64,000 bases of DNA from Pirellulales bacterium (GTDB lineage: Bacteria; Planctomycetota; Planctomycetia; Pirellulales; JALHPA01). The notes beneath the pieces were generated by a model that was not told where the DNA came from, ran no database searches, and saw only the letters and a list, made by a program, of their open reading frames with translations. The position numbers were made by a program, and so were the translations under genes. The stretch lies in the NCBI GenBank assembly GCA_041736895.1, contig JBGSSS010000062.1, positions 8,558 to 72,557 on the forward strand, read 5' to 3'. Of this stretch, positions 759-57,990 are shown in pieces; positions within the stretch are counted from its first letter, which is position 1; each line of letters starts with the position of its first letter.

Positions 759-763
759 GATTT

Positions 764-870
764 TTTTGCCACTGATGAACGCAGATACCTTCTGATTTTC
801 ACTGATTTGAGAAACCGATTTTTTCAGATCAGTGAAAATCAGCAATAATCCGTGTCGATCAGTGGCAAAA
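764..870. repeat. Nested inverted-repeat intergenic element (REP/MITE-like) between convergent genes
   Basis: Outer TTTTGCCACTGAT...ATCAGTGGCAAAA and inner CTGATTTTCACTGAT...ATCAGTGAAAATCAG inverted repeats. Confidence 0.7.
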
Positions 871-2010: not shown

Positions 2011-2093
2011 TTGGTTCTAATGCCAATAAGAATCGAATCCCTCAAGTGCAGGGAACTCGTCCATCAACTCTAGCATAATCCCCGGCTCTTCCC

Positions 2094-3779: not shown

Positions 3780-3847
3780 AAATGCTCCAAGGAGGCAAGC
3801 TCCTTGGCTTTAGCTCACATTCTTCCTTCTAACTCCTAGATTCTCTC

Positions 3848-38814: not shown

Positions 38815-39012
38815 CGATCCAACTCTCAAAAATCGTTGCTTGCAGAAGTCACGAAGCGAATCAACGTGAAAGGAGCAAATTCCAAGCCAAGTTCGCTAGC
38901 AACTTCGCTGACACAGAAACTGCTATCGACAGCATCACGCAAATCGTTATTCTTGCACCACGAAACCGGGAGAAATCTCCCAGCAGTTCTTGCGATCTTT
39001 TGAACTTTGCGC

Positions 39013-40612: not shown

Positions 40613-41133
40613 GGAACAGGGCACGACACAAGCGAACAGGGGAACATGTCAGGGATCGGTGACTCGCGATTCGGCTAGTGAGTGAACACCCGCACGAATT
40701 CCACGAGCTGCCGAGTTTTCTGGCTTACTTCAATCCGGCCATATTGAACGTGATCAGGCCCTTGCCACTACCACTCAACGCTCACGGATCGTTTTCTCGC
40801 CAACTCGGCCCCAAGCGGCCAGTCGAGGAATGAATCATCTCGACTCGAAGCCACTGGGCGCACCATCGCATTTCTAGATCCCACTACACCACACCAGTTG
40901 GCACAAAATCAAACCCCTTTTTCAGAAATTTTCAGGTCATTCAAACGCTGCCTACGGGTTCTGCGAGAAACTCTTTTTCTCCTTCTCGAAATGCTCCCTT
41001 CTCACTTGGGAATCTGTTACAAAGACACGGCACTAGGATTCGCTCGCTATTATCACGATTCATGCCGACGAATTCTGCGAGTCTTGTTCACAAGTCTGAC
41101 TTTTTCGCGTGGGTTAAAACCCACGCTACGGCG

Positions 41134-42339
41134 ATGCGCTACTTCTACTTGCTATTCGTGCTTGTCTGTGCCACTTCCTCGGCTGCCGAACTCAAATTCG
41201 AGCCGCAGGAAATCGAGACCAAGCTGACCGTCGGGTACGCCGTGTCGCTCTGTGATGTGAACGGCGATGGCAAGACGGATATTGTCGTGGTCGACGCGGA
41301 TCGCGTGCTGTGGTACGAGAATCCGACATGGAAAGCGCGCACGATCATCGCGAATCAGACACTGCGCGACAACGTTTGCATCGTCCCGCTCGACATCGAC
41401 GGCGACAAGCAAATCGACTTTGCTCTTGGCGCTGATTGGCGGCCATTCGATACGAACAAGGGTGGCACACTGCAGTGGCTGCAACGCGGCAAGTCGCTCG
41501 ACGAAAACTGGAAGGTCCATCCGATCACGACCGAACCGACAATCCACCGGATGCGCGCGGCAGACTTCGATGGCGATGGCAAGGTCGAACTCCTCGCGTC
41601 GCCGCTCATGGGCCGCGGCACGACCAAACCGAACTTCGCGGAAGCCGGCTCGCGCACCATGCAATTTCCGCTGCCCGCTGATCCGGTCAAAGGGCCTTGG
41701 ACGCCGCGCGTGATCAACGACGATCTGCACGTGACGCATAATCTTTGGCCGTGCGACATTGACGGCGATGGCAAGCTCGAACTCTTGATCGTCTCGTTTG
41801 AAGGCGTGTTTCGGCTCGACCCGACCGAGAACGGTTCGTGGAAAAAGAAGAAGCTCGGCGAAGGGAACCAGGCGACCAGCCCCAACCGCGGTGCAAGCGA
41901 AATTAAACTCGGCCGGCTCGCCAACAAAATGCCGTACATCGCCACGATCGAACCGTGGCACGGGTTTCAGGTCGTCGTCTACACGCCGCCCAAGGACCCC
42001 AACGATCTTTGGACGCGCGTCGTTGTCGATGACGAACTTCTTTGGGGTCACGCAGTGTGGTACGCGAACATGGACAACGATCCGGACGAGGAACTGATCA
42101 TCGGCGTGCGCGACCACAAAGACGCGACCCACCGGAGCGGGATTCGCGTTTACGATCCGACACTCGACTCAACAGCGCCGGGCGGCGTGCGATGGCAGCG
42201 GCAAATCGTCGATCCGGCGGGCGTCGCGGTCGAAGACGCGGCCGCGGCGGACCTCGACGGCGACGGCAAAACAGACATCGTGGCCTGCGGCCGCGCGACT
42301 AAAAATGTCAAGATTTATTGGAACCGCGGGGCGAAGTGA
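41134..42339 (+). CDS. FG-GAP/VCBS repeat beta-propeller protein
   Basis: Signal peptide; DVNGDGKTD, DIDGDKQID, DFDGDGKVE, DLDGDGKTD repeats; IEPWHG. Confidence 0.9.
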   Translation: MRYFYLLFVLVCATSSAAELKFEPQEIETKLTVGYAVSLCDVNGDGKTDIVVVDADRVLWYENPTWKARTIIANQTLRDNVCIVPLDIDGDKQIDFALGADWRPFDTNKGGTLQWLQRGKSLDENWKVHPITTEPTIHRMRAADFDGDGKVELLASPLMGRGTTKPNFAEAGSRTMQFPLPADPVKGPWTPRVINDDLHVTHNLWPCDIDGDGKLELLIVSFEGVFRLDPTENGSWKKKKLGEGNQATSPNRGASEIKLGRLANKMPYIATIEPWHGFQVVVYTPPKDPNDLWTRVVVDDELLWGHAVWYANMDNDPDEELIIGVRDHKDATHRSGIRVYDPTLDSTAPGGVRWQRQIVDPAGVAVEDAAAADLDGDGKTDIVACGRATKNVKIYWNRGAK

Positions 42340-42353
42340 AAATGCAAATGCGG

Positions 42354-42579
42354 TTGAACAGAAGGCCGCAAAGAACGCAAAGAATACAAATACGAGTTTC
42401 GACAGAAGGTTACGAAGGAAACGAAGAGGGGATTTTGTGACAAGAACCATTACTCGCAAACCGCGTTTTTTTGAAAAGATGTTTATTGAAATGCATTTGC
42501 CTTTCCTTCGTTACCTTCGCTTCCTTCTGTAGAATACTCCTCGCATTTTTCTCTGCGATCTTTGCGGCCTTCTGTTCAA
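42354..42579. repeat. Nested inverted-repeat intergenic element (ACAGAAGG-type, MITE/REP-like)
   Basis: Perfect 21-bp outer IR TTGAACAGAAGGCCGCAAAGA / TCTTTGCGGCCTTCTGTTCAA and inner ACAGAAGG..ACGAAG / CTTCGT..CCTTCTGT. Confidence 0.8.
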
Positions 42580-42759
42580 TATTCTGCTGCATCGAAATAA
42601 CGAAAAAAGCACGAGCGGCGAACAGTTGCCTGAACGCCATTCGTGCTTTGCGTGTTTTCGGATATGGTTCTTGTGCCGACTCGCTCGAAGCATGGCTTCG
42701 TGCTACGTCGGCGTACTCGCCGCAATCAACTCTGCCGCGTTCGTAGCAATGGCTACGAA

Positions 42760-43362
42760 CTACCCAACGTTGCGGACAACGCCGACCAGGACACCGAGAA
42801 TCTTGGCTTCCTTGACGTAGATTGGCTTCATCGTGCTGTTGGCCGGTTGCAGACGGATGCGGCCTTTTTCCGGATACCAGTACTTGAGCGTTGTTTCGCC
42901 TTCATCGGTTTGGGCAACGACGATCTGGCCGGGGCTGGCTTCGCGGGCTTTACGCACGACGACGTAATCGCCGTCGGCAATTTGCGCTTCGATCATCGAG
43001 TCGCCGCTGACGCTCAGCACGAACAAATTTTTCTTGCTGAACATCGCGTCGAAGTCGACTCGTTCATCTTGTTCAATCGCTTCGTGCAAGACACCGGCCG
43101 CGATTCGGCCACGGAGAGGAAGGCCCTTCTCTTCGGCGAACCCGTCGACGATTTGGATCGCGCGGGACATACCCGGCTCGCGGGTGATGATCCCTTTCTT
43201 TTCGAGGGCCTTGAGATGGCACATGACGCCGTTCGGGCTGGCGATTTCAAAGTGATCGCCAATCTCGCGAACCGTGGGGCCATAGCCGCGCGAGCGCATC
43301 TTTTCCTTGATGAAGTTCATCACCGCTTCTTGGCGTTTTGTCAGGTCGTTTTGCTCGGACAT
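42760..43362 (-). CDS. lexA: SOS repressor LexA
   Basis: LTKRQ, GYGPTVREIG, HLKALEKKG, IAAG cleavage site, GDSM serine, TLK lysine. Confidence 0.97.
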   Translation of the reverse strand: MSEQNDLTKRQEAVMNFIKEKMRSRGYGPTVREIGDHFEIASPNGVMCHLKALEKKGIITREPGMSRAIQIVDGFAEEKGLPLRGRIAAGVLHEAIEQDERVDFDAMFSKKNLFVLSVSGDSMIEAQIADGDYVVVRKAREASPGQIVVAQTDEGETTLKYWYPEKGRIRLQPANSTMKPIYVKEAKILGVLVGVVRNVG

Positions 43363-43741
43363 CGTGTGGCATTCCTTTGACTGGAGTATGTTTTTGCTCG
43401 CCGGGGATTTGTGCCCCAGGGCCAGGAAATCGCAACCAAGCGCCGAATAACAACGGACCGGCTTGAGGTGAACCTGTACCCTTAACCATGTAATATACGC
43501 CCGTTCACGTCAAGTCCATTTGTACAGTAATCGGCAAAATATTTTCAGACCTGCACCTATCCTCTGAGAAAAACTGGGGAATTCCAAGCTTTTTTCAGTA
43601 GGAAGAAATATTGGCACACAAGTTCAAGTTGGGTTAGGATGAATGTCCCACCCGCCAAAAGTTGCCGCCAGCCGGCGGATTTGGTTCACGCCCCGCCTCG
43701 TATTGCACGCCAGCCGTTTCCCCTTTTTGGATTCTGACACG

Positions 43742-44992
43742 ATGTGCCGCATTGCCCAACTTGGCCGTCTGATGACTTTTGTTTGTGCTGCCCTGCTCTG
43801 TTGCGAGTCACTTCCCGCACAGGAGTGGACTCGTTTTCGTGGACCTGAGGGTAGCGGCATCAATGCCAAAGTGGATATCCCGGGCGAATGGAAGGAATCG
43901 GACATCGCTTGGAAAATCGAACTTCCGGGCAAAGGGCACTCTTCGCCCGTGCTCTGGGGGGACAAGCTCTTTGTCAACAGCGCGATCGCAGAAACGGGCG
44001 AACGCGTGATCTGCGGCATCGATTCGGCCAAGGGGAAGATCCTGTGGACGAAAAAATTTCCCGCCAGTGCCAGCTTCCGGATTCATGCGCAAAACAGTTT
44101 CTCGTCCGGTTCGCCGGCGTGTGACAAGGACGCCGTCTACTTTGCTTGGGCCTCGCCCGAGAAAGGCGAACTCATCGCCGTCGATCACGCGGGCAAGGTA
44201 CTGTGGGAAGCGCCGCTCCCCGGGTACGTTAGCCGGCATGGGTTCGGCAGCTCGCCGATTGTGCATGGCGACTTGGTTTATCTGACCTACGATCAAGATG
44301 GCCCGAGCACTGTCTTTGCGATGGATCGCAAGACAGGCGAGAAAAAATGGAGCGTCGAACGCAAGGTTCTCAACGAACAAAATGCGAGCTACGCCACACC
44401 GATGATTTTGCCCGCGATGGGCAAGCAAAGCGAATGCCTGATCATCAACAGTTGGGCTCATGGCATCAGTTGCTTGAACCCGACGAACGGAGCGACGATC
44501 TGGGAGAAGACGGTCTTCCATCGCAGGCCGGTGGGTTCGCCAATCTTGCACAACGGCATGATCATCGGCAATTGCGGCGAAGGGGGCGGCGACAACGCCG
44601 TCATCGGACTCAAGGTCAACAACCACGAACCGGAAATCGCATTCAAGATCGACAAGACGATGGCCCCGTATGTGCCGACGATTATTGCCGAGGGCTACTA
44701 CGCGTATCTGTGGAGCGACAAGGGGATCGTCAATTGTATTCACCTGCCCGACGGCAAGAAGGTCTGGCAACAGCGCATCGGCGGCAATTTTTCTAGTTCG
44801 CCCGTCATCGCCAAGGACAAGTTGATCAATATCTCGGCCGAGGGCGAGGTCATTGTTCTCGCCACGGGCGACAAATTCCAGCAACTCGGCAAAAACAAAC
44901 TCGGCGAAACGACCCGCTCGACCCCGGCTCTGGCGAATGGAAAAATGTTCATCAGGACCGAAGGGCATCTACATGCGGTGAAGGGAAAGTAA
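43742..44992 (+). CDS. PQQ-binding-like (BamB-type) beta-propeller protein
   Basis: WTRFRGPEGSG, GHSSPV, GSSP, SYATP, FSSSPV, STPALANGKMFIRT. Confidence 0.9.
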   Translation: MCRIAQLGRLMTFVCAALLCCESLPAQEWTRFRGPEGSGINAKVDIPGEWKESDIAWKIELPGKGHSSPVLWGDKLFVNSAIAETGERVICGIDSAKGKILWTKKFPASASFRIHAQNSFSSGSPACDKDAVYFAWASPEKGELIAVDHAGKVLWEAPLPGYVSRHGFGSSPIVHGDLVYLTYDQDGPSTVFAMDRKTGEKKWSVERKVLNEQNASYATPMILPAMGKQSECLIINSWAHGISCLNPTNGATIWEKTVFHRRPVGSPILHNGMIIGNCGEGGGDNAVIGLKVNNHEPEIAFKIDKTMAPYVPTIIAEGYYAYLWSDKGIVNCIHLPDGKKVWQQRIGGNFSSSPVIAKDKLINISAEGEVIVLATGDKFQQLGKNKLGETTRSTPALANGKMFIRTEGHLHAVKGK

Positions 44993-45049
44993 GGACCAGC
45001 GTTACGTTGCACGATCCCCTGGACATCGAACATCACGTTTTTTGACATT

Positions 45050-46504
45050 ATGAAAAACTGCTTGGGACTTCTGGGAACGTTGTTCGCTTTGTTGGGCAGG
45101 CTCAATGCCGCTGAGCACTTGGCCGCAAAGCCGAATATCATCTTCATCCTGGCGGATGATCTCGGCTGCATGGATGTCGGTTGCTTCAATCCAAAGACGT
45201 TTTACGAAACGCCGAACATCGATGCGCTGGCCAAACGCGGGATGCGTTTCACTCAAGCTTACGCCGCATGCTGCGTCTGCTCGCCGACACGCGGCAGCAT
45301 TATGACCGGGAAATATCCGCCGCGCTTCGGGATTACGGATTTCATTCCGGGCGCGGCCTCGGGCAAGCTCAAGTCCGCCCCCAATGCGAATCATCTGCCG
45401 CTCGACGAAGTCACGCTCGCCGAAGCTCTCGGCGCGCATGGCTATGAGACGTTTTTCTCCGGCAAGTGGCATCTCGGCGGCGGCGAGTTCTATCCAGGGG
45501 CACAGGGTTTCCCTAAAGACCTCGGCAACGGCGGAGGCACCAAGGGCAACGTCCAGTTCTGGTATCCCAAGTCCGGTTTGCCTCTGCCCGATCCCAAAGA
45601 CGACCCGAAGACCACGGAACGGATCGTGAACGACGCGGTGAAATTCATTGGCGAGCCGCGAGACCGGCCGTTCTTTGCCTACTTGCCGTTTCTGGCCGTG
45701 CATACTCCGCTCGGGGCCCGCGCGGAACTTGTCGAAAAGTACAAACAGAAAGCAACCAGCGCGCCGCCAGACGCGTGGGGCCAGGAACGCGATCGCCGTG
45801 TGCGGCTCGCCCAAAACAACGCAGTCTACGCCGCGATGCTCGAGCAGCTTGATACGGGTATCGGCCGCATCTGCAGCGCGCTCGAGAAAAACGGCCTCAC
45901 CGAAAAGACGATCATCGTTTTTATGTCCGACAACGGCGGACTCTCTACCGTCAATAATCCTCCGACTTCGAATTCGCCGCTCCGCGCCGGCAAAGGTTGG
46001 CCCTACGAAGGCGGAGTGCGCGAGCCGCTGATCATTTGCGCGCCCGGCGTTGCCAAGCCCGGGAGTGTCTGCGACGTGCCGGTGATCAGCACCGATTTTT
46101 ATCCGACGCTGCTCCAACTCGCCGGCTTGGAATTACAACCGCGGCAGCATCTCGATGGCGTGAGCTTCGTTCCGTTGCTGCGGGGCGAAAATGTCCCACG
46201 CGGTAAACCACTCTTTTGGCACTACCCGCATTACCACGGTTCGGGCAGCATGCCGAACGGCGCGATGCGCGACGGCGATTGGAAGCTGATCGAGTGGTTC
46301 GAGGATGGCGCGCTGGAACTCTATAACATCCGACAAGATCTCGGCGAAACGAAGAACCTGGCCGAGCAAGAACCCGCGAAAGTGAAAGAATTGCACGCGC
46401 AACTTCTCGCGTGGCGGAAAGATGTCGGAGCATTAATGCCCACGCCGAATCCCGAACCCGCACGAAAAAAGGGGAAGCAGGCAGCGGCCCAAAAACAGCC
46501 CTGA
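45050..46504 (+). CDS. Secreted formylglycine-dependent sulfatase
   Basis: PNIIFILADDLG, CSPTRGSIMTG (CxPxR), GKWHLG, SDNGG, YEGGVREP. Confidence 0.95.
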   Translation: MKNCLGLLGTLFALLGRLNAAEHLAAKPNIIFILADDLGCMDVGCFNPKTFYETPNIDALAKRGMRFTQAYAACCVCSPTRGSIMTGKYPPRFGITDFIPGAASGKLKSAPNANHLPLDEVTLAEALGAHGYETFFSGKWHLGGGEFYPGAQGFPKDLGNGGGTKGNVQFWYPKSGLPLPDPKDDPKTTERIVNDAVKFIGEPRDRPFFAYLPFLAVHTPLGARAELVEKYKQKATSAPPDAWGQERDRRVRLAQNNAVYAAMLEQLDTGIGRICSALEKNGLTEKTIIVFMSDNGGLSTVNNPPTSNSPLRAGKGWPYEGGVREPLIICAPGVAKPGSVCDVPVISTDFYPTLLQLAGLELQPRQHLDGVSFVPLLRGENVPRGKPLFWHYPHYHGSGSMPNGAMRDGDWKLIEWFEDGALELYNIRQDLGETKNLAEQEPAKVKELHAQLLAWRKDVGALMPTPNPEPARKKGKQAAAQKQP

Positions 46505-46743
46505 TTGTTGGGCATTATATCCAAGGCGTCTGAACGTTCTTGCGGAACATCGTTGCACGCAACTGCCCTAGTGGTTGTTAAGAAACAGACCAGATCATTC
46601 CTAAAACTACCTTCCCCGTTCTGCCAAGGACTTGCGATTCTGACGGCCAACAATCAAGATAGTTGTTCCCGCCAGTTGGGGTCCGTTTTCGCAGACGGCC
46701 ATCACTAAAACCATTTTCCTCTCTGTTCTTTTGGTGCCTTTGT

Positions 46744-47658
46744 ATGCTGCGCCGTTTCACTGTTTTGTGTCTGCTGGCTGTCGCATGTCTCGCTCGTTTG
46801 ACGCTGGCCGAAGAGAAACCGGCCGCAGCCAAAGCTGCCGATGAAAAAGCTGCCGTCAAACCGCTCAAGGTGCTGCTCATCACGGGCGGCTGCTGCCATG
46901 ATTACGCGAAGCAAAAGGATATCCTCAAGGAAGGCCTCGAAGCCCGCGCCAATATCGAGGTGACTGTCCAGTACAATCCTACCAAGGGGACCGACACCAA
47001 GTTCGAAGTCTACGACAAGGACAACTGGGCCGACGGCTACGACTGCATCATTCACAACGAGTGCAATGCGAATGTGAAGGACGAGGACTTCACGAAGCGC
47101 ATTCTGAAACCGCACCGCGAAGGCTTGCCGGCCGTGGTCATCCACTGCGCCATGCATTGCTACCGCGATGGAACCGATGAATGGTTCAAGTTCACCGGCG
47201 TCACCACCCGCGGCCATGGCCCGAAATATCCGTTCAAAATCGTGAACATGAACCGCGACAACCCGATCATGAGCGGCTTCGGTGCCGAATGGACCACGCC
47301 CAAGGGCGAGCTCTATCACATCGACAAAGTCTGGGATACGGCCAAGGTTCTCGCACACGGCGAACGGATCGATCCCAAGAAAGCAGACGCCGGCGTAATT
47401 AAGACCGACGCCTGTATTTGGACCAACCAATACGAAAAAGGCCGCGTCTTTGGCACGACCGTTGGACATTACAACGAAGAGATGAGTGACCCGAAATTTC
47501 TGAACTATGTCGCCCGCGGTGTGCTTTGGTCCTGCGACAAGTTGAACGACCAGTACCTGAAGCCAGAACCGAAGGTGGAAAAGAAAGCCGCCGCGCTGGA
47601 AGTTCCTGGCCCGCAGCCAACGTTGGCCCCCGTCGAAGTTTCTGTAAAAAAAAAGTAA
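46744..47658 (+). CDS. Secreted ThuA-like (trehalose utilisation) domain protein; ends at a putative -1 frameshift site
   Basis: Signal peptide; LLITGGCCHDY, HCAMHCYR, GRVFGTTVGH, RGVLWSC. Confidence 0.85.
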   Translation: MLRRFTVLCLLAVACLARLTLAEEKPAAAKAADEKAAVKPLKVLLITGGCCHDYAKQKDILKEGLEARANIEVTVQYNPTKGTDTKFEVYDKDNWADGYDCIIHNECNANVKDEDFTKRILKPHREGLPAVVIHCAMHCYRDGTDEWFKFTGVTTRGHGPKYPFKIVNMNRDNPIMSGFGAEWTTPKGELYHIDKVWDTAKVLAHGERIDPKKADAGVIKTDACIWTNQYEKGRVFGTTVGHYNEEMSDPKFLNYVARGVLWSCDKLNDQYLKPEPKVEKKAAALEVPGPQPTLAPVEVSVKKK

Positions 47659-47685
47659 CTGAGCCTGCGGCTTCAAAGCCGCAGG
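47649..47685 (+). other. Putative programmed -1 ribosomal frameshift signal
   Basis: In-frame A AAA AAG followed by TAA, 8-nt spacer, hairpin CCTGCGGCT-TCAA-AGCCGCAGG; -1 frame open for >1000 codons. Confidence 0.6.
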
Positions 47686-50600
47686 AATCGTTGCTGCTAG
47701 TCCAAAAGAAGGCCGACAAGAAAAAGGAAGACAACCAGAAAGAAGAAAAGCCCGCCCCAACCGAGGAGCAACTCCTCCGGGATATCAAAGTTCCCGAGGG
47801 TTTCACGACCAAGGTCTTTGCCGCTCCGCCCCAAGTGGGCTATCCCGTGGGGCTCTGCGTCGCGCCGAATGGCGACGTCTACATAGCCAGCGATGAGAAC
47901 GGCTCACTCGGCGCTGGCCCGAACCGCGGCAAGATTTTTCGCTGCATCGATACAGACCGTGATGGCCGCGCCGACAAGATCGACGTCTTTGCGGTGATCG
48001 ACAGCCCCCGCGGATTGTTTCACGACGGCAAGCAGTTGTTCGTCCTTGCGCCGCCGAACCTGGTCTCGTTCACCGACACCGATGGCGATGGAAAGTCGGA
48101 CAAGCAAGAAACACTCGTCGCCGGCATCGGGTTCGATCTGAAATTTCGCGGCGCGGATCACACGACCAACCAATTACAAATGGGTGCGGACGGCTGGATC
48201 TATGTCGCCGTCGGCGATTACGGTTTTCGCAAAGCGACCGACAAATCGGGCAAGACGCTCGAATACCGCGGCGGCGGGATCGTCCGCGTGAAATCCGACG
48301 GTACGAATCTGGAAGTCGTCAGCCGCGGCCAACGCAACATCTACGACGTTGCGATCAGTCCCCTTGGCGAGCTCTTCACGCGCGACAACACCAACGACGG
48401 CGGCGGCTGGAATGTACGGCTCTCGCATGTCCTGCCCGGCGCGCAGATGGGTTACCCGTCGCACTTCCTCAATTACCCGGCGGAGCATTGGCCGGCGCTG
48501 GTCGATTACGGTGGAGGCTCGCCCTGCGGTTCGCTGTTTATCGACGAACCAGGTTTGCCGCCGGAAATCGGCCGGACTTTGCTGACGTGCGATTGGGGCC
48601 GCAGCGTGATCTATCGTCATCCTCTCAAAGCCGACGGCGCTTCGTTCACGCCCGAGGCGGCGGACTTCATCAAAATCTCGCGCCCGGTCGACATCGATTA
48701 CGACGGTGCTGGAAAATTCTACGTCGCGAGTTGGCGTGACGGCGGGTTCAAGTACAGCCATCCGTTCGTCGGCTATGTCGCGACGATCGAATACACGGCC
48801 GGCAAGTTCCAGCCGATGCCGGATGTGGCGAAGCTCGATGTCAAGCAACTCCTCGCCGAGCTGCGCAGCGACAGCCATCGCCGCCGGCTCTTCGCCCAGC
48901 TTGAATTGCAACGCCGCTTGTTTGGCGAAGTGAAACCCGAAGTTGCCAACCTTGCCGGCGGCAAAGAAGCTCCGGGCATGATGATGGAAGGAATGAAGAC
49001 GGAGACGATCACCAAGCTGATGGACCTGCTCTTTGATTCCAAAGCGTCGCTCGAATCACGCCTGGCAGTCGTGCCGTTGCTAAATGAGCACCTCAAAGAC
49101 GCCAACGAAACAGAGTGCCAAGAATTGAACGCTCGCTTTGAGACCGAAATCTTGGCGAAGAATGATCCCGGCGCGCTGGTAATCCCAGGACTGCTTGCTC
49201 AATCGCCGCTTTGTTCGTCCGGTCACACGCCGATTATCTACAAAGCCTTGCTCACGCACGATGACCCGCGAGTTCGACTGCAAGCCGTGGCAATCGCCGG
49301 CAAAATTCCGCAATCGCCGCTGTTGCTGCGGATGTTGCTCTCGCGCTTGACAGACGAAGACCGGGCGGTTGCGCACATCGCCGAGCGGTCGTTGCTGGGC
49401 TTGGCTGGCTATCCCAAAGCCCAGAGCGGCAACGAGCATCCGCAGAATCTCGAGAAGCAAAATCCCGAACTGCCTAGCAGAGTCGCCGACACGATTTCGC
49501 TCGGCCTGACCGATGAGAATCCGAAGCTCAGCGCGGCGGCGAGAATCTTGGCCCAGGTGAATCGCCCGGCCGTGGTCACGGACCTAATCCAGACACTCGG
49601 CAAGAAATCGCTCGCGGCCGAGCAACGCCAAGCGATCCTGACCGCGCTCTGTCGGCAGTACTTTGTCGATCAAGCGTGGGATGGCAAGTGGTGGGGAACG
49701 CGGCCCGACACGACCGGCCCGTATTACACGCCGGTCAAGTGGAGCGAAAGCGACCGCATCGCCGAGACCCTCAAAAGGCAACTGACCACGCTGCCGGACA
49801 CGGATCGCAAACACCTGCTATCGCAGGCGCTGAAGCACAAAATCGATCTGCCCGAGGTGCTCGCCGCGGCGCAGGAAGCAGCCGTGAGCGATGCCGATTT
49901 CCGCAAGACGATGGTTCCGGTCCTGGCCACGCGCAAGGAACTCGCGCCGCTCGATATCAAGGTGCTGGAACTGGCAGCCCGCGATGCGCAGCTCGAGGCG
50001 AAAATTCGCGCCTCGGCGATTAATAGCCTCTGCCGCGGTAAGTTCGATTCCCCGGCCTTCACCGCTGGATTTGCCGCTCTGGTTGAAGCGCTCGAGAATC
50101 CGAAGCCGGCGAAGGAATTGACCGATGCCCGCGATCAAATCCAACGCGATTCGAAGAACAGCAAGCAGTTCCGCCAAATTCTCGACCGCCTGAATACCGA
50201 TAATCGCGTGGAACGAGAATTGTTGTTTGCCATGTTATTGACCTCGGCCGCGGACCCCAAATTCGCGGAGAAGGACAAGTACGAAATCGAATCCCATTTG
50301 AACAAATCCTGGGATGAACCCGCACAAAGCGTCGATCTACTCAAGGCGATTGCCCGCACCAAATCGGAGTCGTTCAACGACGCCGTTCGGAAGCAGACAA
50401 CCGCCGCCGACAAAGACGTGCAAGCCGCGGCGCAACAAGCGTTCAAGGCATTGCAACTCGACAAGAAACCCGACGCTGGGCCGAAGATCGCCAATCTCTC
50501 GTTCGAAGAAGTCCTAGCCGAAGCCAAAAAACTTCCCGGCGATCTGGCCCGCGGTGAGCAACTTTTCACCAAGCAACAATGCGTGAATTGCCACACGGTC

Positions 50601-50954
50601 AACAAGGGCGATACGCCCAAGGGGCCGTACCTTGGCGGAATCTCCGCGCGCTACAACCGCACGGAACTGACCGAGTCGATCCTCAAACCGAGCGCCAAAA
50701 TCGCACAGGGTTTCGAAACGCAATGGTTCGAGACCGACGAAGGTTTGACCTTCGAAGGCTTCGTCACCCGCGAGTCCGGCACCGAAGTCGAAATCCGCAA
50801 CACGAAGGGCGAGCAGCAAATCGTCAGCAAGGAGCACATCGAAGAACGCGGCAAGCGCGAGCAATCGATCATGCCCAACGGTTTGCTCGATACACTGACG
50901 CCGGCGGACTTGGCCGCGCTGCTCAAGTATCTGGAATCGCTGCCAGCGCAGTAA
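47652..50954 (+). CDS. PVC-type membrane-bound dehydrogenase/heme c protein (propeller + HEAT + CxxCH), probably expressed as a ThuA fusion
   Basis: IKVPEGF, DTDRDGRADK, GADGWIY, GQRNIYD, DNTNDGGGW, CVNCH, GPYLGGI, SILKPSAKI, SIMPNGL; no ATG or signal peptide of its own. Confidence 0.85.
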   Translation, partial: KVTEPAASKPQESLLLVQKKADKKKEDNQKEEKPAPTEEQLLRDIKVPEGFTTKVFAAPPQVGYPVGLCVAPNGDVYIASDENGSLGAGPNRGKIFRCIDTDRDGRADKIDVFAVIDSPRGLFHDGKQLFVLAPPNLVSFTDTDGDGKSDKQETLVAGIGFDLKFRGADHTTNQLQMGADGWIYVAVGDYGFRKATDKSGKTLEYRGGGIVRVKSDGTNLEVVSRGQRNIYDVAISPLGELFTRDNTNDGGGWNVRLSHVLPGAQMGYPSHFLNYPAEHWPALVDYGGGSPCGSLFIDEPGLPPEIGRTLLTCDWGRSVIYRHPLKADGASFTPEAADFIKISRPVDIDYDGAGKFYVASWRDGGFKYSHPFVGYVATIEYTAGKFQPMPDVAKLDVKQLLAELRSDSHRRRLFAQLELQRRLFGEVKPEVANLAGGKEAPGMMMEGMKTETITKLMDLLFDSKASLESRLAVVPLLNEHLKDANETECQELNARFETEILAKNDPGALVIPGLLAQSPLCSSGHTPIIYKALLTHDDPRVRLQAVAIAGKIPQSPLLLRMLLSRLTDEDRAVAHIAERSLLGLAGYPKAQSGNEHPQNLEKQNPELPSRVADTISLGLTDENPKLSAAARILAQVNRPAVVTDLIQTLGKKSLAAEQRQAILTALCRQYFVDQAWDGKWWGTRPDTTGPYYTPVKWSESDRIAETLKRQLTTLPDTDRKHLLSQALKHKIDLPEVLAAAQEAAVSDADFRKTMVPVLATRKELAPLDIKVLELAARDAQLEAKIRASAINSLCRGKFDSPAFTAGFAALVEALENPKPAKELTDARDQIQRDSKNSKQFRQILDRLNTDNRVERELLFAMLLTSAADPKFAEKDKYEIESHLNKSWDEPAQSVDLLKAIARTKSESFNDAVRKQTTAADKDVQAAAQQAFKALQLDKKPDAGPKIANLSFEEVLAEAKKLPGDLARGEQLFTKQQCVNCHTVNKGDTPKGPYLGGISARYNRTELTESILKPSAKIAQGFETQWFETDEGLTFEGFVTRESGTEVEIRNTKGEQQIVSKEHIEERGKREQSIMPNGLLDTLTPADLAALLKYLESLPAQ

Positions 50955-51585: not shown

Positions 51586-53373
51586 ATGTCCGAATTTCCG
51601 CACTGGAACCTTGCGCCGATTTTTCCCGGGCTTGATAGCGAAGAATATCGCGCAGGCCGCATCGATTATGAAGAGCGCCTGGCCGCGCTCGAGTTGCTCT
51701 TTGATGAAAATCAAATCCGCCGCCGCAACATCGCCAGCCACGAAACGCCGGCGGTGCTCGGCGAATTGCTGGAACGGATTTTAACAGCAAGCAACGAGTT
51801 GTTCGTGCGCGGCGAGACGCTCGGCGCGTTCCTCCATGCGCTCATCACGACCGACAGCTATAACGCCGCGGCGGCCAAGGAAAACTCGGCGCTGGAAATG
51901 CTCGGCACACGCCGGCAACAGCTTGAAGTCCGGCTCAAGGGCTGGCTCGGCGCGCTCGCCAAGCAACTCCCGGAACTCATCAAAGGCAGTTCGCTCCTGG
52001 CTGAGCATCACTTCTTCCTCACGTTCACCGCCGAGCAGAGCCGGTACCTGATGAGCGAACCGCTCGAAGCACTCGCCGCCGAGTTGGCACTCGATGCGGG
52101 CACCGCTTGGGGCCGCTTGCAAGGCACCGTCACGAGCCAGCTCACGGTGAACTTCGACGGTAAAGAAATGCCGATCACGATGGTTCGAAACCTGAGCTTC
52201 GATCCCGATCCGGCAGTGCGCGAGCGTGCCTATCACGTCGAGATCGCCGGCTGGAAATCGATCAGCCCCACGGTCGCGGCCTGCTTGAACGGCGTCAAGG
52301 GAACGGCACTGACGCTCAACAAGCAGCGCGGGCGAGCCAGCGTGTTGGATTTATCACTCGAACAAAACCGCATCGACCGCGCGACGCTCGACGCACTGCT
52401 GGGGTCGATTCATGAATTCTTGCCCGAGTTTCGCCGTTACTTTACCTCGAAGGCGAAGAAGCTTGGCCACAAGGCGCTGATGTGGTGGGATCTGTTCGCT
52501 CCGATCGGCCACGCCGAACAGCGTTTCACGTGGGACGAGGCACGCCGCTTCATCGTCGAAAAGTTCAGCAACTTCTCGCCGGAGCTCGGCGCCTTCGCCG
52601 AACGCAACTTCGCCCAAAGTTGGATCGACGCAGAACCACGCGCCGGTAAACGGGGCGGGGCGTATTGCATGAGCGTGCCAGGCCGCGAAGAGAGCCGCAT
52701 TCTGATGAACTTCGATGGCAGCTTCGAGCAACTGATGACGCTCGCGCACGAGTTGGGCCATGCCTGGCACAACGAGTGTCAGACAGGCTTGCCGATGCTG
52801 CGCCGTGGTTCGCCGGCAACGCTGGCCGAAACGGCAAGCATCTTCTGCGAGACGCTCGTCGCCGAGTCATCGCTCGCCACGGCCTCGCCGGCCGAGCAAT
52901 TGATGATCCTCGAAGCGCAGTTGGCGAACGCAGCACAAGTTTGCGTCGATATCAGTTCGCGGTACCTGTTCGAAACGGCCGTCATGGAACGCCGGCCACA
53001 GGGCGAATTGAGCGCCGAGGAGTTCTCCGAAATTCTCCATGCCGCGCAGCGCGAAACGTATGGCGAGGCCGTCGCCGCGGGGACCTATCACCCGTATATG
53101 TGGCTGTGGAAAGGCCACTACTACAGCCACGACGATAACTTCTACAACTTCCCGTACGCCTTCGGGCATTTGTTCAGCCTGGGTCTCTACGCGATCTTTC
53201 AAAAAGAGGGTACGTCGTTCGTGCCGCGCTACAACGCGCTGCTCCGCGACACGGCGCAGGACATGGCCGCACCGCTCGCCGAACGCTTTGGTCTTAACAT
53301 TCGCGAACGCGAATTCTGGCGCGGAAGTCTCCGCGTGGTCGCACGGATGGTCGATCGGTACGAGACGCTGTAG
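51586..53373 (+). CDS. pepF: M3 family oligoendopeptidase F
   Basis: WNLAPIFPG, GKRGGAYC, TLAHELGHAWH, LAETASIFCE, FYNFPYAFG. Confidence 0.92.
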   Translation: MSEFPHWNLAPIFPGLDSEEYRAGRIDYEERLAALELLFDENQIRRRNIASHETPAVLGELLERILTASNELFVRGETLGAFLHALITTDSYNAAAAKENSALEMLGTRRQQLEVRLKGWLGALAKQLPELIKGSSLLAEHHFFLTFTAEQSRYLMSEPLEALAAELALDAGTAWGRLQGTVTSQLTVNFDGKEMPITMVRNLSFDPDPAVRERAYHVEIAGWKSISPTVAACLNGVKGTALTLNKQRGRASVLDLSLEQNRIDRATLDALLGSIHEFLPEFRRYFTSKAKKLGHKALMWWDLFAPIGHAEQRFTWDEARRFIVEKFSNFSPELGAFAERNFAQSWIDAEPRAGKRGGAYCMSVPGREESRILMNFDGSFEQLMTLAHELGHAWHNECQTGLPMLRRGSPATLAETASIFCETLVAESSLATASPAEQLMILEAQLANAAQVCVDISSRYLFETAVMERRPQGELSAEEFSEILHAAQRETYGEAVAAGTYHPYMWLWKGHYYSHDDNFYNFPYAFGHLFSLGLYAIFQKEGTSFVPRYNALLRDTAQDMAAPLAERFGLNIREREFWRGSLRVVARMVDRYETL

Positions 53374-53440
53374 TGTGGGCTTCAGCCCACACGTCATTTC
53401 GCTGAATCTTTTTTTACGCGTGGGCTGAAGCCCACGCTAC
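53370..53440. repeat. REP doublet, family C (its GTAG supplies the pepF stop codon); single copy also at 41106-41129
   Basis: GTAGTGTGGGCTTCAGCCCAC ... GTGGGCTGAAGCCCACGCTAC. Confidence 0.8.
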
Positions 53441-53443
53441 TTT

Positions 53444-54391
53444 ATGCTCGCGATCTCCTGTAAAAACCTCGTCAAAACCTACGACAGCAAGCCGCCGGTC
53501 GATGCCGTGCGCGGGTTGGATCTGGCAGTCGAGCGCGGCGAATGTTTTGGGCTGCTCGGACCAAACGGCGCGGGCAAGACGACCACGATCGAGATTCTTG
53601 AAGGCTTGCTTGCCGCGACCAGCGGCGAAGTCGAGGTCATGGGTCTGCGCTGGGGCCGCGACGACGATGCGATACGGGAGCAAGTCGGCATCTCGCTGCA
53701 AGAGACAAAGCTCTCGGAAAAGCTCACTGTCCGCGAAACGGTGCAACTGTTTCGCAGCTTTTATCAGAAACCGCTGGCCGCGGACGAAGCAATTGCCAAG
53801 GTTTCGTTGCAAGAGAAAGCCGACTCGCGCGTCGGCAAGCTCAGCGGCGGACAGAAACAGCGCCTCGCCGTGGCATGCGCGATTGTTGGCGATCCCCAGT
53901 TGCTCTTCCTCGACGAACCGACGACGGGTCTCGATCCGGCATCGCGGCGCGAACTGTGGGAGATTATTCGCTCGTTCAAAGCCGCCGGCCGTACGATTTT
54001 GCTCACAACGCATTACATGGATGAAGCCGAGCGGCTGTGCGATCGCATCGCCATCGTCGATCATGGCCGTGTGATTGCGCTCGGCACGCCGCGGGAGTTA
54101 ATCGCGAGCCTGGGCGGGGAGCATATTCTCGAGTTTACCCTCGAGACCGACAGCGCGGCGATACTCAATGGCGAACTCACCGCGTCGTTGCAGCAATTGC
54201 CCTCGGTAACGAGCGCCGAAGTTCACGATGGCCAAGCGCGATTGTCGGTCCGCGAGTTTCACGTCGCCCTCCCAGCGGTGGTGAATCTGCTGGCGGAGCG
54301 CGGCTACAAACTAGTGAATCTGGGGACGCATCATGCCTCGCTCGAAGATGTTTTTGTGAAGTTGGCGGGTCGGAAGTTGAGCGAGGAATGA
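53444..54391 (+). CDS. ABC-2 type transporter ATP-binding protein
   Basis: GPNGAGKTT, LSGGQKQR, LFLDEPTTGLD, TTHYMDEA. Confidence 0.95.
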   Translation: MLAISCKNLVKTYDSKPPVDAVRGLDLAVERGECFGLLGPNGAGKTTTIEILEGLLAATSGEVEVMGLRWGRDDDAIREQVGISLQETKLSEKLTVRETVQLFRSFYQKPLAADEAIAKVSLQEKADSRVGKLSGGQKQRLAVACAIVGDPQLLFLDEPTTGLDPASRRELWEIIRSFKAAGRTILLTTHYMDEAERLCDRIAIVDHGRVIALGTPRELIASLGGEHILEFTLETDSAAILNGELTASLQQLPSVTSAEVHDGQARLSVREFHVALPAVVNLLAERGYKLVNLGTHHASLEDVFVKLAGRKLSEE

Positions 54392-54455
54392 ATCGGCTAT
54401 GACGCAAGCGGGTGGGTAGTTCGACGGTACAAAGCACGACTTTTCTTAAAAATCA

Positions 54456-55532
54456 ATGTCCTCACGCTCCTGGTTCGAACACCCGTTGGCACAAATCGTC
54501 ATCGCACGCGTGCGCGAATTCACGCGTGAACCCGAGGCCGTTTTTTGGGTCTGCGGCTTTCCCATCATGATGGTGATTGCGCTGGGTCTGGCTTTTCGCA
54601 ATCAACGCGTCGAAGAGATCCAAGTCGACCTCGTCGGTGAACCCCTGCTCGTCGAACAAACGGCGAAGATCCTCAAAGAAGACAAGCGGATGAACGTCAC
54701 GCCGCACAAAGATGCGGCCGATGGCGAGCAACGGCTGCGCACGGCGAAGACGTCGCTGCTCGTCCGAGTTCTCGCTAGTGAGCAGACCGAACCCAAATTC
54801 ACTTACCAATACGAACTTGACCCCACGCGCGCCGAGAGCGTGCTGGCGAAAAGCGCGGTCGATGATGTCTTGCAGCGCGGTGCTGGCCGCAAAGACTCCG
54901 TGACGATCAAAGAGGTCGAACGGGCTGAGCCGGGAGGACGCTACATCGATTTTCTCGTGCCGGGCTTGCTCGGCATGAGTCTGATGGGGGGCGGGCTCTG
55001 GGGCATTGGGTTTGTCACGGTCGATATGCGGATTCGAAAACTTCTCAAGCGATTCCTCGGCACACCCATGAAGAAAAGCCAATTCCTCGGCGGATTGATG
55101 CTCGCGCGGCTGTTGTTTTTGCTGCCCGAGGTGCTGATCCTGCTCCTCTTTTCACACTTTGTCTTCGAGGTGCGAGTCGCTGGCTCCTATTTCGAGGTCT
55201 TGCTCTTGATCTTGCTCGGAGCTTTCAGCTTCTCCGGCATAGGACTGTTGGTGGCAAGCCGCGCGAACACCATCGAGATGGTCACGGGATTGATGAACTT
55301 GGTGATGGTGCCGATGTGGATCTTCTCGGGGATCTTCTTTTCGCCCGAGCGTTATCCCGATTGGATGCAGCCATTCATTCAGGCGTTGCCGCTCACAGCG
55401 CAGAACAACTTGCTGCGCGCGGTGATGCAAGAGGGCGACTCGATGTGGCAGCATCTGGTGCCGCTGGCCATTCTCTTGACCTGGGGGATTGTGACGTTTG
55501 CTCTGGGGCTCAAAATCTTCAAGTGGAATTGA
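54456..55532 (+). CDS. ABC-2 type transporter permease
   Basis: YIDFLVPGLLG, FSGIFFS, six TM segments. Confidence 0.92.
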   Translation: MSSRSWFEHPLAQIVIARVREFTREPEAVFWVCGFPIMMVIALGLAFRNQRVEEIQVDLVGEPLLVEQTAKILKEDKRMNVTPHKDAADGEQRLRTAKTSLLVRVLASEQTEPKFTYQYELDPTRAESVLAKSAVDDVLQRGAGRKDSVTIKEVERAEPGGRYIDFLVPGLLGMSLMGGGLWGIGFVTVDMRIRKLLKRFLGTPMKKSQFLGGLMLARLLFLLPEVLILLLFSHFVFEVRVAGSYFEVLLLILLGAFSFSGIGLLVASRANTIEMVTGLMNLVMVPMWIFSGIFFSPERYPDWMQPFIQALPLTAQNNLLRAVMQEGDSMWQHLVPLAILLTWGIVTFALGLKIFKWN

Positions 55533-55608
55533 TCGCCGTCGATTCCACGACACTTTGCCATCAAATTGACGACGACATCAATGCGCGATGATTCGTCCTA
55601 AATTTTGA

Positions 55609-55626
55609 TGGGCAAATTGTTTGCAT
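55609..55626 (+). promoter_or_regulatory. Possible sigma54-like promoter
   Basis: GGGCAAATTGTTTGCAT: GG-N10-GC spacing, about 90 nt upstream of ATG 55717. Confidence 0.35.
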
Positions 55627-55716
55627 CGCGCATGTCGGCTTGTTAAGTTGATAGCGACGAGGACCACACACGCTCCCAGCAAAGTGTTCCTTCTCTTCTC
55701 GACGCCAGGCGCGGCA

Positions 55717-57990
55717 ATGCACAAAACTCTCGACGTGGAAACCAAGCCGCTCACAGGCCGCGGGTTGGTGGTGTTACTCGCCTGTACGATTTTTGTCAGC
55801 GCGTTTTTGTTGTTTCAGGTGCAACCCCTGATCAGCAAGTTCATTCTTCCCTGGTTCGGCGGCAGCCCCGCGGTCTGGACCACGGCGATGCTATTCTTTC
55901 AATGCGTGCTCTTTGGAGGTTATCTCTATTCGCATGTGACCTCGACGTATCTCGGGCTGCAGCGGCAGACGCAATTGCACATCGTCTTGCTGATCGCCGC
56001 ATCGATCATGGCGACGTATGTGATCCCGATGGAATCACTCAAGCCCGTGGGCGAGGAGAATCCGACACTGAAAATCCTCATGCTCTTGGGGACTTGCGTC
56101 GGCTTGCCGTATTTCATGCTCTCGACGACCGGCCCGCTGATACAGTCTTGGTTCAGCCGCGCGTATCCCGGGGCGTCGCCCTATCGCTTGTTTGCGCTGT
56201 CGAATTTCGGTTCGCTGCTTGCGCTAGCGTCGTTTCCGTTTTTGTTCGAGCCGAATTTGGAATTGCCGCAGATGGGCAAGTTCTGGATGTATGGGTTTTG
56301 GATCTTTGCCGGGTTGTGCATCTACGCGGCGGTGCGCGTTTTGGGGATGCACTTGAAGCAGAAAGAACTGGCCGAACCCCGCATCGAGGAAAAGTCCGAT
56401 GCGCCGATGTTTTGGCAAAAGCTGGCGTGGTTGTTTTTACCAGCCGTGGCGTCGATGGTGTTTATTGCCACCTCGAACGAAGTCACGCACAATGTCGCGC
56501 CGACGCCGTTCCTCTGGATTGCGCCTTTGGGTTTGTATTTGATTACGTTCATTATCTGTTTCGATCACGAACGCTGGTATGTGCGAGGGATTATCGGCCC
56601 GCTCTGCATGCTTTCAGTTCTACTGCTTGTCACTTATGCCAAGAACTTGAGTTATGTACAGGAGCTAGTGCTTTATTTCACGGCGATGTTCTTCATGTGC
56701 CTGATCTGCCACGGCGAGTTTGTCAAACTTCGGCCGAAAAGCCACAAGTACCTCACCGAATATTATCTGTTTCTTTCCGCCGGCGGAGCACTCGGGGGCT
56801 TGTTCATCAGCTTCATCGCGACAAACTTTTTTGACGATTACCACGAATGGCCGCTGGGATTGATTACTTGCTTCATCATCGCCGGGGCGGTGCTCGCGGC
56901 GTCCTGGCATAAGCGATATGCAAAACCAACACTCACCGTGGGTGCTTGCGCCGCAACGCTTGCAGGATTCATCTACTTGGGCTGGATGCTGAATCCTTAT
57001 GCTGTTGGTGCGCCGGAACCCGGTTATGAATCCGTGGTTCTATTCAAAGCACGAAATTTTTATGGCACGGTCACCGTGCGAGAAAATCGATTTACCAGGA
57101 ATTTCTCGGCTGAAGAGAATAACGGCATCGCCCGCAGCGCGCGTGATAGTAACCGCGAATTCCGCAGCGGGTCTATTCTTCACGGCAGGCAATTGATCGA
57201 CCCTGAACACCGCAAGCAGCCGATTGCCTACTACCACAAAGATTCCGGCTCCGGCCAAGCGATCAACTACGTCCTCAAGAAGAATGCCGCGCGGCCGATC
57301 AAGTTCGCCGTCGTCGGGTTAGGAGCCGGATCGCTCGCGGCCTTCGCGCGCGGCCCCGAAGGAGATCGACCCGCTGACGAATGCGTCACGTATGAAATCA
57401 ATCCGCTGGTCGAAAAGATCGCGCGGGAATACTTCTGGTACCTCCCTGATTATGAAGCCCGGACGGGGAAAAAATGTGAAGTCCGGCTCGGTGATGCACG
57501 GCTCACAATGGAACGCGAACCGGCGCAGAATTATGACGTCATTATTTTAGATGCGTTTAGCGGCGACTCCGTGCCGGCACACTTACTTACCCGCGAGGCG
57601 TTTGAAATCTACAAGAAGCATCTCCGCCGAGATGCCGACGGAAAGATTCAGGGGATCATTGTGTTGAATATCACAAACAGTTACCTGAACCTTTATCCGG
57701 TGGTGAAAAACGCGGCCGAGCAAGTCATGCAAATGAAGTATACCAGCGTTTATCGAGAATCTTTTCCGCAAGAATACGCGCAGCGGACGCACTATTTCAT
57801 TATGTCCAACGACGAAGAATATCTGAAAGCGAATCCGATGGTGAAACGCCAAAAATATAAATACGTGACGGATGCGGAGGGAAATGAAAAGAAAGTCCCC
57901 ACAGGCGAAGAATACGACTACGACTGGAAAGATATCCCACTTTGGACCGATCATTACAGCAATCTGTTTAAGATTCTGCTCAACGATTGA
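55717..57990 (+). CDS. Fused MFS-like membrane domain/spermidine synthase-like SAM-dependent protein
   Basis: IFVSAFLLFQVQPLI, CHGE, VVGLGAGSLA, YEINP, LGDARL, LDAFSGDSVPAHLLTREAF, WTDHYSNL. Confidence 0.92.
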   Translation: MHKTLDVETKPLTGRGLVVLLACTIFVSAFLLFQVQPLISKFILPWFGGSPAVWTTAMLFFQCVLFGGYLYSHVTSTYLGLQRQTQLHIVLLIAASIMATYVIPMESLKPVGEENPTLKILMLLGTCVGLPYFMLSTTGPLIQSWFSRAYPGASPYRLFALSNFGSLLALASFPFLFEPNLELPQMGKFWMYGFWIFAGLCIYAAVRVLGMHLKQKELAEPRIEEKSDAPMFWQKLAWLFLPAVASMVFIATSNEVTHNVAPTPFLWIAPLGLYLITFIICFDHERWYVRGIIGPLCMLSVLLLVTYAKNLSYVQELVLYFTAMFFMCLICHGEFVKLRPKSHKYLTEYYLFLSAGGALGGLFISFIATNFFDDYHEWPLGLITCFIIAGAVLAASWHKRYAKPTLTVGACAATLAGFIYLGWMLNPYAVGAPEPGYESVVLFKARNFYGTVTVRENRFTRNFSAEENNGIARSARDSNREFRSGSILHGRQLIDPEHRKQPIAYYHKDSGSGQAINYVLKKNAARPIKFAVVGLGAGSLAAFARGPEGDRPADECVTYEINPLVEKIAREYFWYLPDYEARTGKKCEVRLGDARLTMEREPAQNYDVIILDAFSGDSVPAHLLTREAFEIYKKHLRRDADGKIQGIIVLNITNSYLNLYPVVKNAAEQVMQMKYTSVYRESFPQEYAQRTHYFIMSNDEEYLKANPMVKRQKYKYVTDAEGNEKKVPTGEEYDYDWKDIPLWTDHYSNLFKILLND

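Follow-up and report, generated by a model that had tools for sequence, protein, structure and literature searches.

Does one locus of a hot-spring Pirellulales bacterium encode a single large protein, two separate proteins, or a short and a long product that share an N-terminus? The question is raised by a 64,000-nucleotide (nt) stretch of contig JBGSSS010000062.1 (assembly GCA_041736895.1), the whole of which is referred to here as the window. Within it the open reading frame (ORF) of a ThuA-like protein stops directly after a run of nine adenines (A9), and the −1 frame continues through the same site into a large haem-binding protein. A first-pass annotation of the DNA read this arrangement as a probable programmed −1 frameshift that supplies both a free ThuA-like protein and a ThuA-dehydrogenase-cytochrome c fusion. 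The analysis reported here suggests that conserved, selected −1 recoding probably does yield two such products, of 304 and 1,403 amino acids (aa), respectively. That the shift occurs, its route and its frequency, and a use for each of the products are inferred from the DNA and from its relatives.

Architecture of the locus

The 0-frame ORF encodes a ThuA domain (PF06283, 5.9e-23, residues 42-262), and the match, which scores 82.7 bits against a gathering cutoff of 33.4 and covers profile positions 1-208 of 209, places the protein in this family. The 3′ end of the ORF reads TCT GTA AAA AAA AAG TAA, in which A_AAA_AAG conforms to the X_XXY_YYZ pattern of a slippery heptamer in the 0-frame phase. 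A spacer of 8 nt (47656-47663) separates the heptamer from a perfect, G+C-rich hairpin of 9 bp. The end of the ThuA ORF, the phase of the heptamer, the hairpin and its distance are all as first described, and every statement that had been made about the sequence itself was verified.

The predicted stability of the hairpin is −16.7 kcal/mol at 37 °C and −8.4 kcal/mol at 70 °C. Its 81-nt context folds with a z-score of −3.9, and none of 200 shuffled sequences folded as well. Across the genome, perfect hairpins of at least 9 bp start at 3.4e-4 of positions, and about 0.4% of 12-nt intervals contain one. The position of the hairpin falls within the range of roughly 5-9 nt after the heptamer in which a stable 3′ structure was sought. 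An intrinsic terminator was considered as the identity of the structure and ruled out, there being no T tail (AATCGTTGCTGC); the hairpin is also not among the seven terminator-like sites of positions 46300-48300. In Rfam no family reached its gathering score, and the sole match (14.5 bits where 37 are required; E 0.94) was at chance level on the opposite strand.

The −1 frame is open over 47526-50954. Its coding potential beyond the heptamer (ORF2) comprises, in order, a linker rich in Lys, Glu and Pro, a β-propeller (DUF7133), a region that matches HEAT weakly and a haem-binding domain whose single CxxCH motif is CVNCH (50580-50594, residue 976). The TIGR02604 and TIGR02603 models both score above their cutoffs, and the CxxCH motif is present. 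ORF2, at 1,099 codons, is thus the PVC-type haem c protein of about 1,100 aa that had been proposed for this frame.

The domains of ORF2 bear directly on how it can be expressed. A c-type cytochrome domain requires export for the attachment of haem by the cytochrome c maturation systems. The N-terminus of ORF2 is rich in Lys and Glu and carries no signal peptide, and the earliest in-frame ATG is codon 176 (48180), within the propeller. The proposal that ORF2 lacks a start of its own is therefore correct with respect to an upstream ATG and a signal peptide, but incomplete in that TTG 47691 is in frame and follows an AGGA-like stretch. Among stand-alone DUF7133 homologues, 13 of the 15 inspected start with a clear hydrophobic, signal-like stretch right before an LL.G.K.P.GF motif; of the remaining two, P0018 has a signal-like stretch behind a longer called N-terminus and P0081 has none. 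In all five fused homologues inspected the signal is at the ThuA end. This supports the view that ORF2 is unable to function alone and that fusion to the ThuA signal peptide is its only visible export route. As ORF2 itself lacks an export signal, its propeller and haem c domain would cross the membrane only within the fusion.

The locus was compared with that of a related genome, G001, against the window genome (G000). ThuA has a ratio of non-synonymous to synonymous substitution rates (dN/dS) of 0.24, and each of the two parts of ORF2 one of 0.26, while dS is about 1-2. A dN/dS of 0.26 at such divergence indicates that ORF2 is under purifying selection, hence that it is likely translated.

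The frame break is genuine

A one-base homopolymer error had been left open as an explanation of the break, with inspection of A9 versus A10 in the sequencing data as the check. The stretch is present in four runs (X1-X4) of one hot-spring study, for which Logan contigs were assembled independently per run. The contigs of X1 (which may be the source sample), X3 and X4 span the homopolymer as A9, with 0 differences and 0 gaps, and none reads A10. The X2 contigs end at 47598 and restart at 47669; the resulting hole (47599-47668) is not centred on the A9 run and may reflect low depth or a variant. Of the 25 A/T runs of at least nine in the 5.89-Mb genome, only the one at the ThuA stop lies at a change of frame, none being found at the other 24. 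Around six of these others sit within long open frames without any frame change, which speaks against widespread homopolymer errors in the assembly. Assembly error is thus unlikely and the frame break is real.

Two further observations concern homopolymers in this genome. On contig C189, 1.4 kb upstream of a ThuA paralogue, an A9 is found where an ordinary ORF ends. Long homopolymers of C and G (C14, C15, G11 and G12) occur on several contigs of the assembly.

An ancestral fusion broken in one clade

Loci of species-representative genomes in which DUF7133 follows ThuA within 900 nt, 46 in number with that of the window excluded, show how unusual the break is. In 45 of these the two domains are in one frame with 0 stops, and the single shifted locus is that of G001; the other fetched loci comprise 40 with ThuA alone and 11 that are too short to judge. 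Single ORFs of 1,415-1,470 aa are found in the species-representative genomes G002, G053, G031, G044 and G038, and G002, which is of the same genus as the window genome, encodes a 1,415-aa fusion without the A run. Planctomycetota proteins of the in-frame ThuA-(discoidin)-DUF7133-HEAT-cytochrome c type, which include a haem-binding protein of Pirellula staleyi DSM 6068 (P0112, 1,462 aa) and DUF7133 proteins of Bremerella and Singulisphaera, have the same domains in the same order as the predicted fusion and, likewise, a single N-terminal signal peptide. They differ in being single ORFs and, in most cases, in having a discoidin domain between ThuA and the propeller. Because 45 of the 46 more distant loci are in one frame, the fusion is ancestral and the frame break derived in one small Pirellulales clade.

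This clade is represented by six split ThuA lineages, namely P0123 (the window's own), P0124 (83% identity), P0125 (82%; a Logan cluster of 12 members on 11 contigs), P0126 (78%), P0127 (that of G001, 68%) and P0128 (69%). Despite overall identities that span 68-100%, all six terminate in ..[V/I/Q]KK[K/N]-stop. The C-termini of the five closest near-length ThuA clusters, ..VEVSVKKK, ..AEVSVKKK, ..DEVAQKK, ..VAVKKN and ..EVSIKKN, end as the window protein does, the QKK form being that of P0126. In a ThuA tree of 24 hand-picked rows (14 near-length matches, G002 and nine fused proteins) the six split forms are one clade with support of 99/97, and its sister consists of P0129 and the fused protein of G002.

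The relatives of ORF2 tell the same story from the other side of the break. A search in which 8,000 candidates were scored returned 4,086 matches, of which 120 were listed. Among the matches listed, all seven close relatives (85-94% identity) are separate proteins of 688-1,102 aa, five of them of 1,040-1,102 aa. The starts assigned to these proteins by gene callers vary (V, M or an internal M). P0007, whose start is farther upstream in the −1 frame, has ..SFCKKKVTEP.. where it passes through this site. All six close relatives whose sequence extends to the CxxCH motif have retained it. No fused form above 60% identity to the window gene was found in a search of longer proteins, a search that also missed the G002 fusion, so that such a form is to be regarded as not found rather than absent. 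G001 was the only other clade member in a scan of species-representative genomes, and a metagenome scan with the N-terminal domain of ORF2 gave only one distant locus (L033, 27% identity).

The site in G001, a metagenome-assembled genome (MAG) from Nanopore reads, is GTA AAA AAA AAC TAG. It has an A9 at the frame change and an adjacent stop, as in the window, but in different letters, and its in-phase heptamer is A_AAA_AAC. Its perfect hairpin, of 13 bp and unrelated in sequence to that of the window, is 21 nt downstream. The examination of orthologues that the first-pass annotation had proposed thus came out in its favour: close relatives stop directly after KK[K/N], and G001 keeps the A9, the stop and a hairpin, albeit a different one. 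The layout is conserved across the six ThuA lineages and P0007, within one clade, with DNA for two of the lineages. From the codon usage of the genome itself GTA AAA AAA is expected for 1.2% of V-K-K triplets, yet it is common to G000 and G001, which argues that the A run is selected at the nucleotide level. None of the 45 in-frame loci has the layout of A9, stop and hairpin.

The distribution of hairpins is equally uneven. A perfect stem of at least 9 bp is present in the inter-domain stretch of both shifted loci (9 bp in G000, 13 bp in G001), compared with one of the 45 in-frame loci, whose scanned inter-domain stretches total 19,956 nt. The two shifted loci are kin, yet the sequences of their hairpins are unrelated. 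The hairpin therefore tracks the frame break. The single in-frame locus with an inter-domain perfect hairpin is L071, where the stem is of 10 bp and the frame is unbroken.

Stand-alone ThuA genes provide a further comparison. In the 42 that were read to the stop there is no long A run at that place, and several end in Lys encoded by AAG. The possibility that the same device is hidden in the Lys-rich ends of stand-alone ThuA genes was rejected, since no long A run precedes the stop in these 42 loci. The −1 frame past the stop is open for less than 600 nt in all but three of them, and those three have no A run. In many stand-alone ThuA proteins (P0130-P0140 and others) a C-terminal ..G.P.PTPAKK(P/K/N) tail is conserved, at the same place as the end of the window protein (..PQPTLAPVEVSVKKK). 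This suggests that the Lys-rich tail is a natural end of the ThuA domain.

Proposed mechanism

In the proposed mechanism an ancestral single ThuA-DUF7133-HEAT-cytochrome c gene has undergone a one-base break at A9, at the boundary between ThuA and the linker. Standard decoding would end at the TAA and give a 304-aa pre-protein with a signal peptide, which would become a free periplasmic ThuA-like protein. In a fraction of expression events a move to the −1 frame at the run would produce the 1,403-aa fusion, in which ..SVKKK is joined to VTEPAASK.. (predicted junction peptide SVKKKVTEPAASK), and the propeller and haem c domain would cross the membrane only as part of this protein. Two routes to the fusion can be envisaged. 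Ribosomes may slip in tandem on A_AAA_AAG, stimulated by the hairpin downstream, or RNA polymerase may add one A to the A9; the protein would be identical in either case. On balance we favour, by a modest degree, the view that this hot-spring Pirellulales clade has recoded an in-frame ThuA-dehydrogenase-cytochrome c gene and that the A9, the stop and the hairpin set the ratio of ThuA to fusion, with both kinds of slippage possibly contributing.

By analogy with characterized systems, the 3′ hairpin points to ribosomal frameshifting, while the A9 and the presence of tRNA-Lys(CUU) point to polymerase slippage. The genome has two CUU and two UUU genes for tRNA-Lys among 74 tRNA genes, the CUU copies lying on contigs C1 and C215, and thus departs from E. 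coli, where a lone tRNA-Lys(UUU) decodes AAG. Because no Shine-Dalgarno (SD)-like element was seen upstream of the site, polymerase slippage on the A9 is no less likely than ribosomal slippage, and the two routes seem about equally probable. The suggestion that the site is a signal of the E. coli dnaX type is consequently upheld for the heptamer and the 3′ hairpin, but is weakened by the occurrence of tRNA-Lys(CUU) beside UUU and by the missing SD-like element. The broader claim of a programmed two-product −1 site gains from the conserved break, the link to a hairpin and the selection on ORF2, and is partly supported.

The heptamer, 8-nt spacer and 3′ hairpin together have the anatomy of a −1 ribosomal frameshift of the dnaX/IS3 type. 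In transposases of the IS3 and IS1 families A_AAA_AAG or A_AAA_AAC followed by a 3′ structure leads to an OrfAB fusion, with OrfA ending nearby. The present locus resembles these orfA-orfB pairs in its heptamer and 3′ structure, but is not a mobile element. E. coli dnaX has the identical in-phase heptamer with a stable 3′ hairpin at a short spacer, and is likewise one gene for two proteins that differ in length but start with the same N-terminus. It differs from the window gene in several respects: here the long product is the one that needs the shift, the 0-frame stop comes right after the site, no SD-like stimulator is seen, tRNA-Lys(CUU), which E. coli lacks, is present, and the gene is for an exported enzyme rather than a replicase subunit. 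Thermus thermophilus dnaX shares the A9 run and the two lysine tRNAs. The two-ORF dnaX genes of Chlorobi and others share the break at the level of DNA, the dependence of the long product on slippage and the stop right after the site, and this type is the closest formal precedent. Both differ from the window locus in gene family and phylum, and polymerase slippage has no need of the strong 3′ hairpin seen here.

In the literature, two-ORF dnaX genes are described as broken at A7-A10 with the stop for the short product directly after the site (PMC3711429; PMC5009743). Heptamers of the IS3/IS1 type are listed in PMC3711429, and PMC5009743 states that runs of nine A or T slip efficiently in vivo and links two lysine tRNAs to the use of polymerase slippage at the A9 run of Thermus dnaX. 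The slippage-stimulating stem-loop described in PMC5009743, that of Roseiflexus IS630, lies 5′ of its motif and not 3′ as here. The E. coli copA gene, in which a −1 frameshift gives a 70-aa CopA(Z) chaperone, is, as described there, another stable chromosomal gene that makes two proteins with a common N-terminal domain; its shifted product is the short one, while in the window gene it is the long one.

Several points weigh against recoding at this site. No RNA run is listed among those that contain the stretch. The tRNA-Lys(CUU) should, by the argument quoted for Thermus, lower ribosomal slippage on AAG; inspection by eye found no SD-like element upstream of the site; and ORF2 could have an independent start at TTG 47691, which follows the stop by 33 nt and has an AGGA-like stretch. 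The family comprises eight genomes in the genome set, clade DNA was read for two lineages, and conservation of the hairpin is seen in just these two DNA sequences. In G001 the hairpin begins 21 nt past the heptamer, a long distance for a stimulator of the classic kind, and, as this is a Nanopore MAG, its A9 could be a miscalled A10, which makes it weak evidence for the A_AAA_AAC form. The Logan contigs that span the A9 are of low depth (3.7-8.9) and from a single study, and minority A10 reads would be invisible in them. There is, in addition, an extra 1-nt loss in a G run inside ORF2 of G001 (L005:3215-3235), and P0007 departs from the family around 25 residues before its end through an apparent frame break; each may reflect either long-read error or real decay.

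Alternative explanations

That the gene has simply undergone a fixed, unprogrammed split is unlikely but is the main rival. ORF2 would then start at TTG 47691, or the fusion would arise from background slippage at the A9 as a compensated indel. An AGGA lies 5-6 nt upstream of this TTG, partly inside the 3′ arm of the hairpin, the TTG was used by the gene caller in P0003, and an aligned TTG is present in G001; perhaps, in a coupling variant, the AGGA-like stretch is freed from the hairpin when a ribosome that terminates unwinds the stem. Runs of nine A slip anyway and compensated indels are a recognised class, according to PMC5009743. However, the product of TTG 47691 would have a CxxCH domain without a signal peptide, whereas 13 of 15 stand-alone homologues inspected have a signal-like stretch; no start is conserved, those called differing among relatives (V, M or an internal M); and in G001 no SD-like stretch is suitably spaced from the TTG. 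Furthermore, an adjacent stop, the rare GTA AAA AAA and a hairpin, all kept at dS of about 1, exceed the needs of a tolerated lesion. Rather less credible is phase variation, in which populations would contain both A9 (ThuA only) and A10 (fusion), the run changing its length by replication slippage. Homopolymers are described in PMC3711429 as classic switches of proteins that are exported or lie at the surface, minority alleles are invisible in contigs and the X2 assembly has a hole around the site. Against such a switch, all three spanning contigs have A9, with no polymorphism in run length, the out-of-frame state is shared by all six lineages, the search of longer proteins gave no fused form above 60% identity, the X2 hole is off-centre from the run, and the hairpin is given no role.

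It is very improbable that the true sequence is A10 and the ORF continuous. Homopolymers are indeed prone to error, and the Nanopore-derived G001 has another homopolymer break, but the A9 recurs in three separately assembled runs, collections of the short-read type (Logan and JGI) show the same C-terminus and separately called ORF2s, and the 0-frame stop abuts the run in both DNAs in different letters (TAA and TAG). Decay of ORF2 as a pseudogene after the frameshift can be given scarcely any credence. It would explain why ORF2 has neither a start nor a signal peptide of its own and why G001 and P0007 each have one further break; ORF2 is, however, intact over its full length here and over around 1,040-1,100 aa in five relatives, its dN/dS is 0.26 at dS of 1-2, and the six relatives that reach the CxxCH motif have kept it.

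Novelty and significance

If the recoding is real, no programmed event of this kind would have been described before it in Planctomycetota, and it would join a small number in metabolic, exported enzymes of bacteria. Stable chromosomal genes of bacteria with productive frameshifting are, to our knowledge, few (dnaX, prfB, copA and some others), most cases being in mobile elements and phages. The locus would add a new gene family and phylum, in the form of an exported redox enzyme, and would exemplify the fission of a fusion protein by recoding instead of by gene splitting. It would also offer a natural site at which to separate ribosomal from transcriptional slippage, since its host has two lysine tRNAs and its A9 is accompanied by a 3′ hairpin. 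Annotation pipelines render this locus as a ThuA gene and a 'haem-binding protein' that lacks its N-terminal part and whose start is arbitrary (V, M or an internal M), which misstates the exported product. No prior report of this case was found in searches of the literature, with the limit that the supplementary tables of PMC3711429 could list a related cluster; the survey in that paper took in only two Planctomycetes genomes.

Features of the locus and its surroundings

Table 1. Positions (in the window) of the features discussed.
Feature	Position	Strand	Details
ThuA-like ORF, 0 frame (short product)	46744..47658	+	ATG 46744; 304 codons and TAA 47656-47658
Probable Sec signal peptide, MLRRFTVLCLLAVACLARLTLA	46744..46806	+	Judged by eye; sole export signal of the locus; start alike in in-frame fused homologues
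A9 homopolymer	47646..47654	+	Candidate RNA-polymerase slippage site; 1 of 25 genomic A/T runs of at least 9
Slippery heptamer A_AAA_AAG	47649..47655	+	In 0-frame phase
0-frame stop TAA	47656..47658	+	Abuts heptamer; position kept in six ThuA lineages, TAG in G001
Perfect 9-bp G+C-rich hairpin, CCTGCGGCT-TCAA-AGCCGCAGG	47664..47685	+	Loop TCAA; 8 nt past heptamer; candidate 3′ frameshift stimulator
ORF2, −1 frame (predicted C-terminal part of 1,403-aa fusion)	47655..50954	+	1,099 codons and stop
In-frame TTG	47691..47693	+	ORF2 codon 13, 33 nt past the stop; AGGA-like stretch upstream partly in hairpin 3′ arm; gene-caller start in P0003
DUF7133 / PVC-type N-terminal β-propeller	47766..48659	+	PF23500, 2.3e-38, residues 38-335; TIGR02604, 134.9 bits (cutoff 122.2)
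HEAT repeat region, weak	49230..49394	+	PF13646, 25.1 bits, under cutoff of 27.7
C-terminal haem-binding cytochrome c domain	50538..50939	+	TIGR02603, 101.2 bits (cutoff 68.15); PF00034, 4.1e-11

The gene was held to be non-mobile, and its surroundings agree with this: no transposase, inverted repeats or additional copies were seen, and the single locus is in a neighbourhood related to sugars and polysaccharides. On the same strand it is preceded (41062-46504) by genes for an FG-GAP / aldos-2-ulose-dehydratase-like propeller, a PQQ-like propeller and a sulfatase, and followed (51586-57990) by those for an M3 peptidase and an ABC-2 transporter pair. ORFs of 789 aa (55621-57990) and 352 aa (39007-40065) have no Pfam match. 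Outside the window, contig C215 of the same genome carries at 711-4757 an array of 21 tRNA genes on one strand, which occupies about 4 kb of this 19-kb contig and includes the second copies of tRNA-Lys CUU and UUU; a tRNA island, an array of phage origin or mis-binning of the contig could each account for it.

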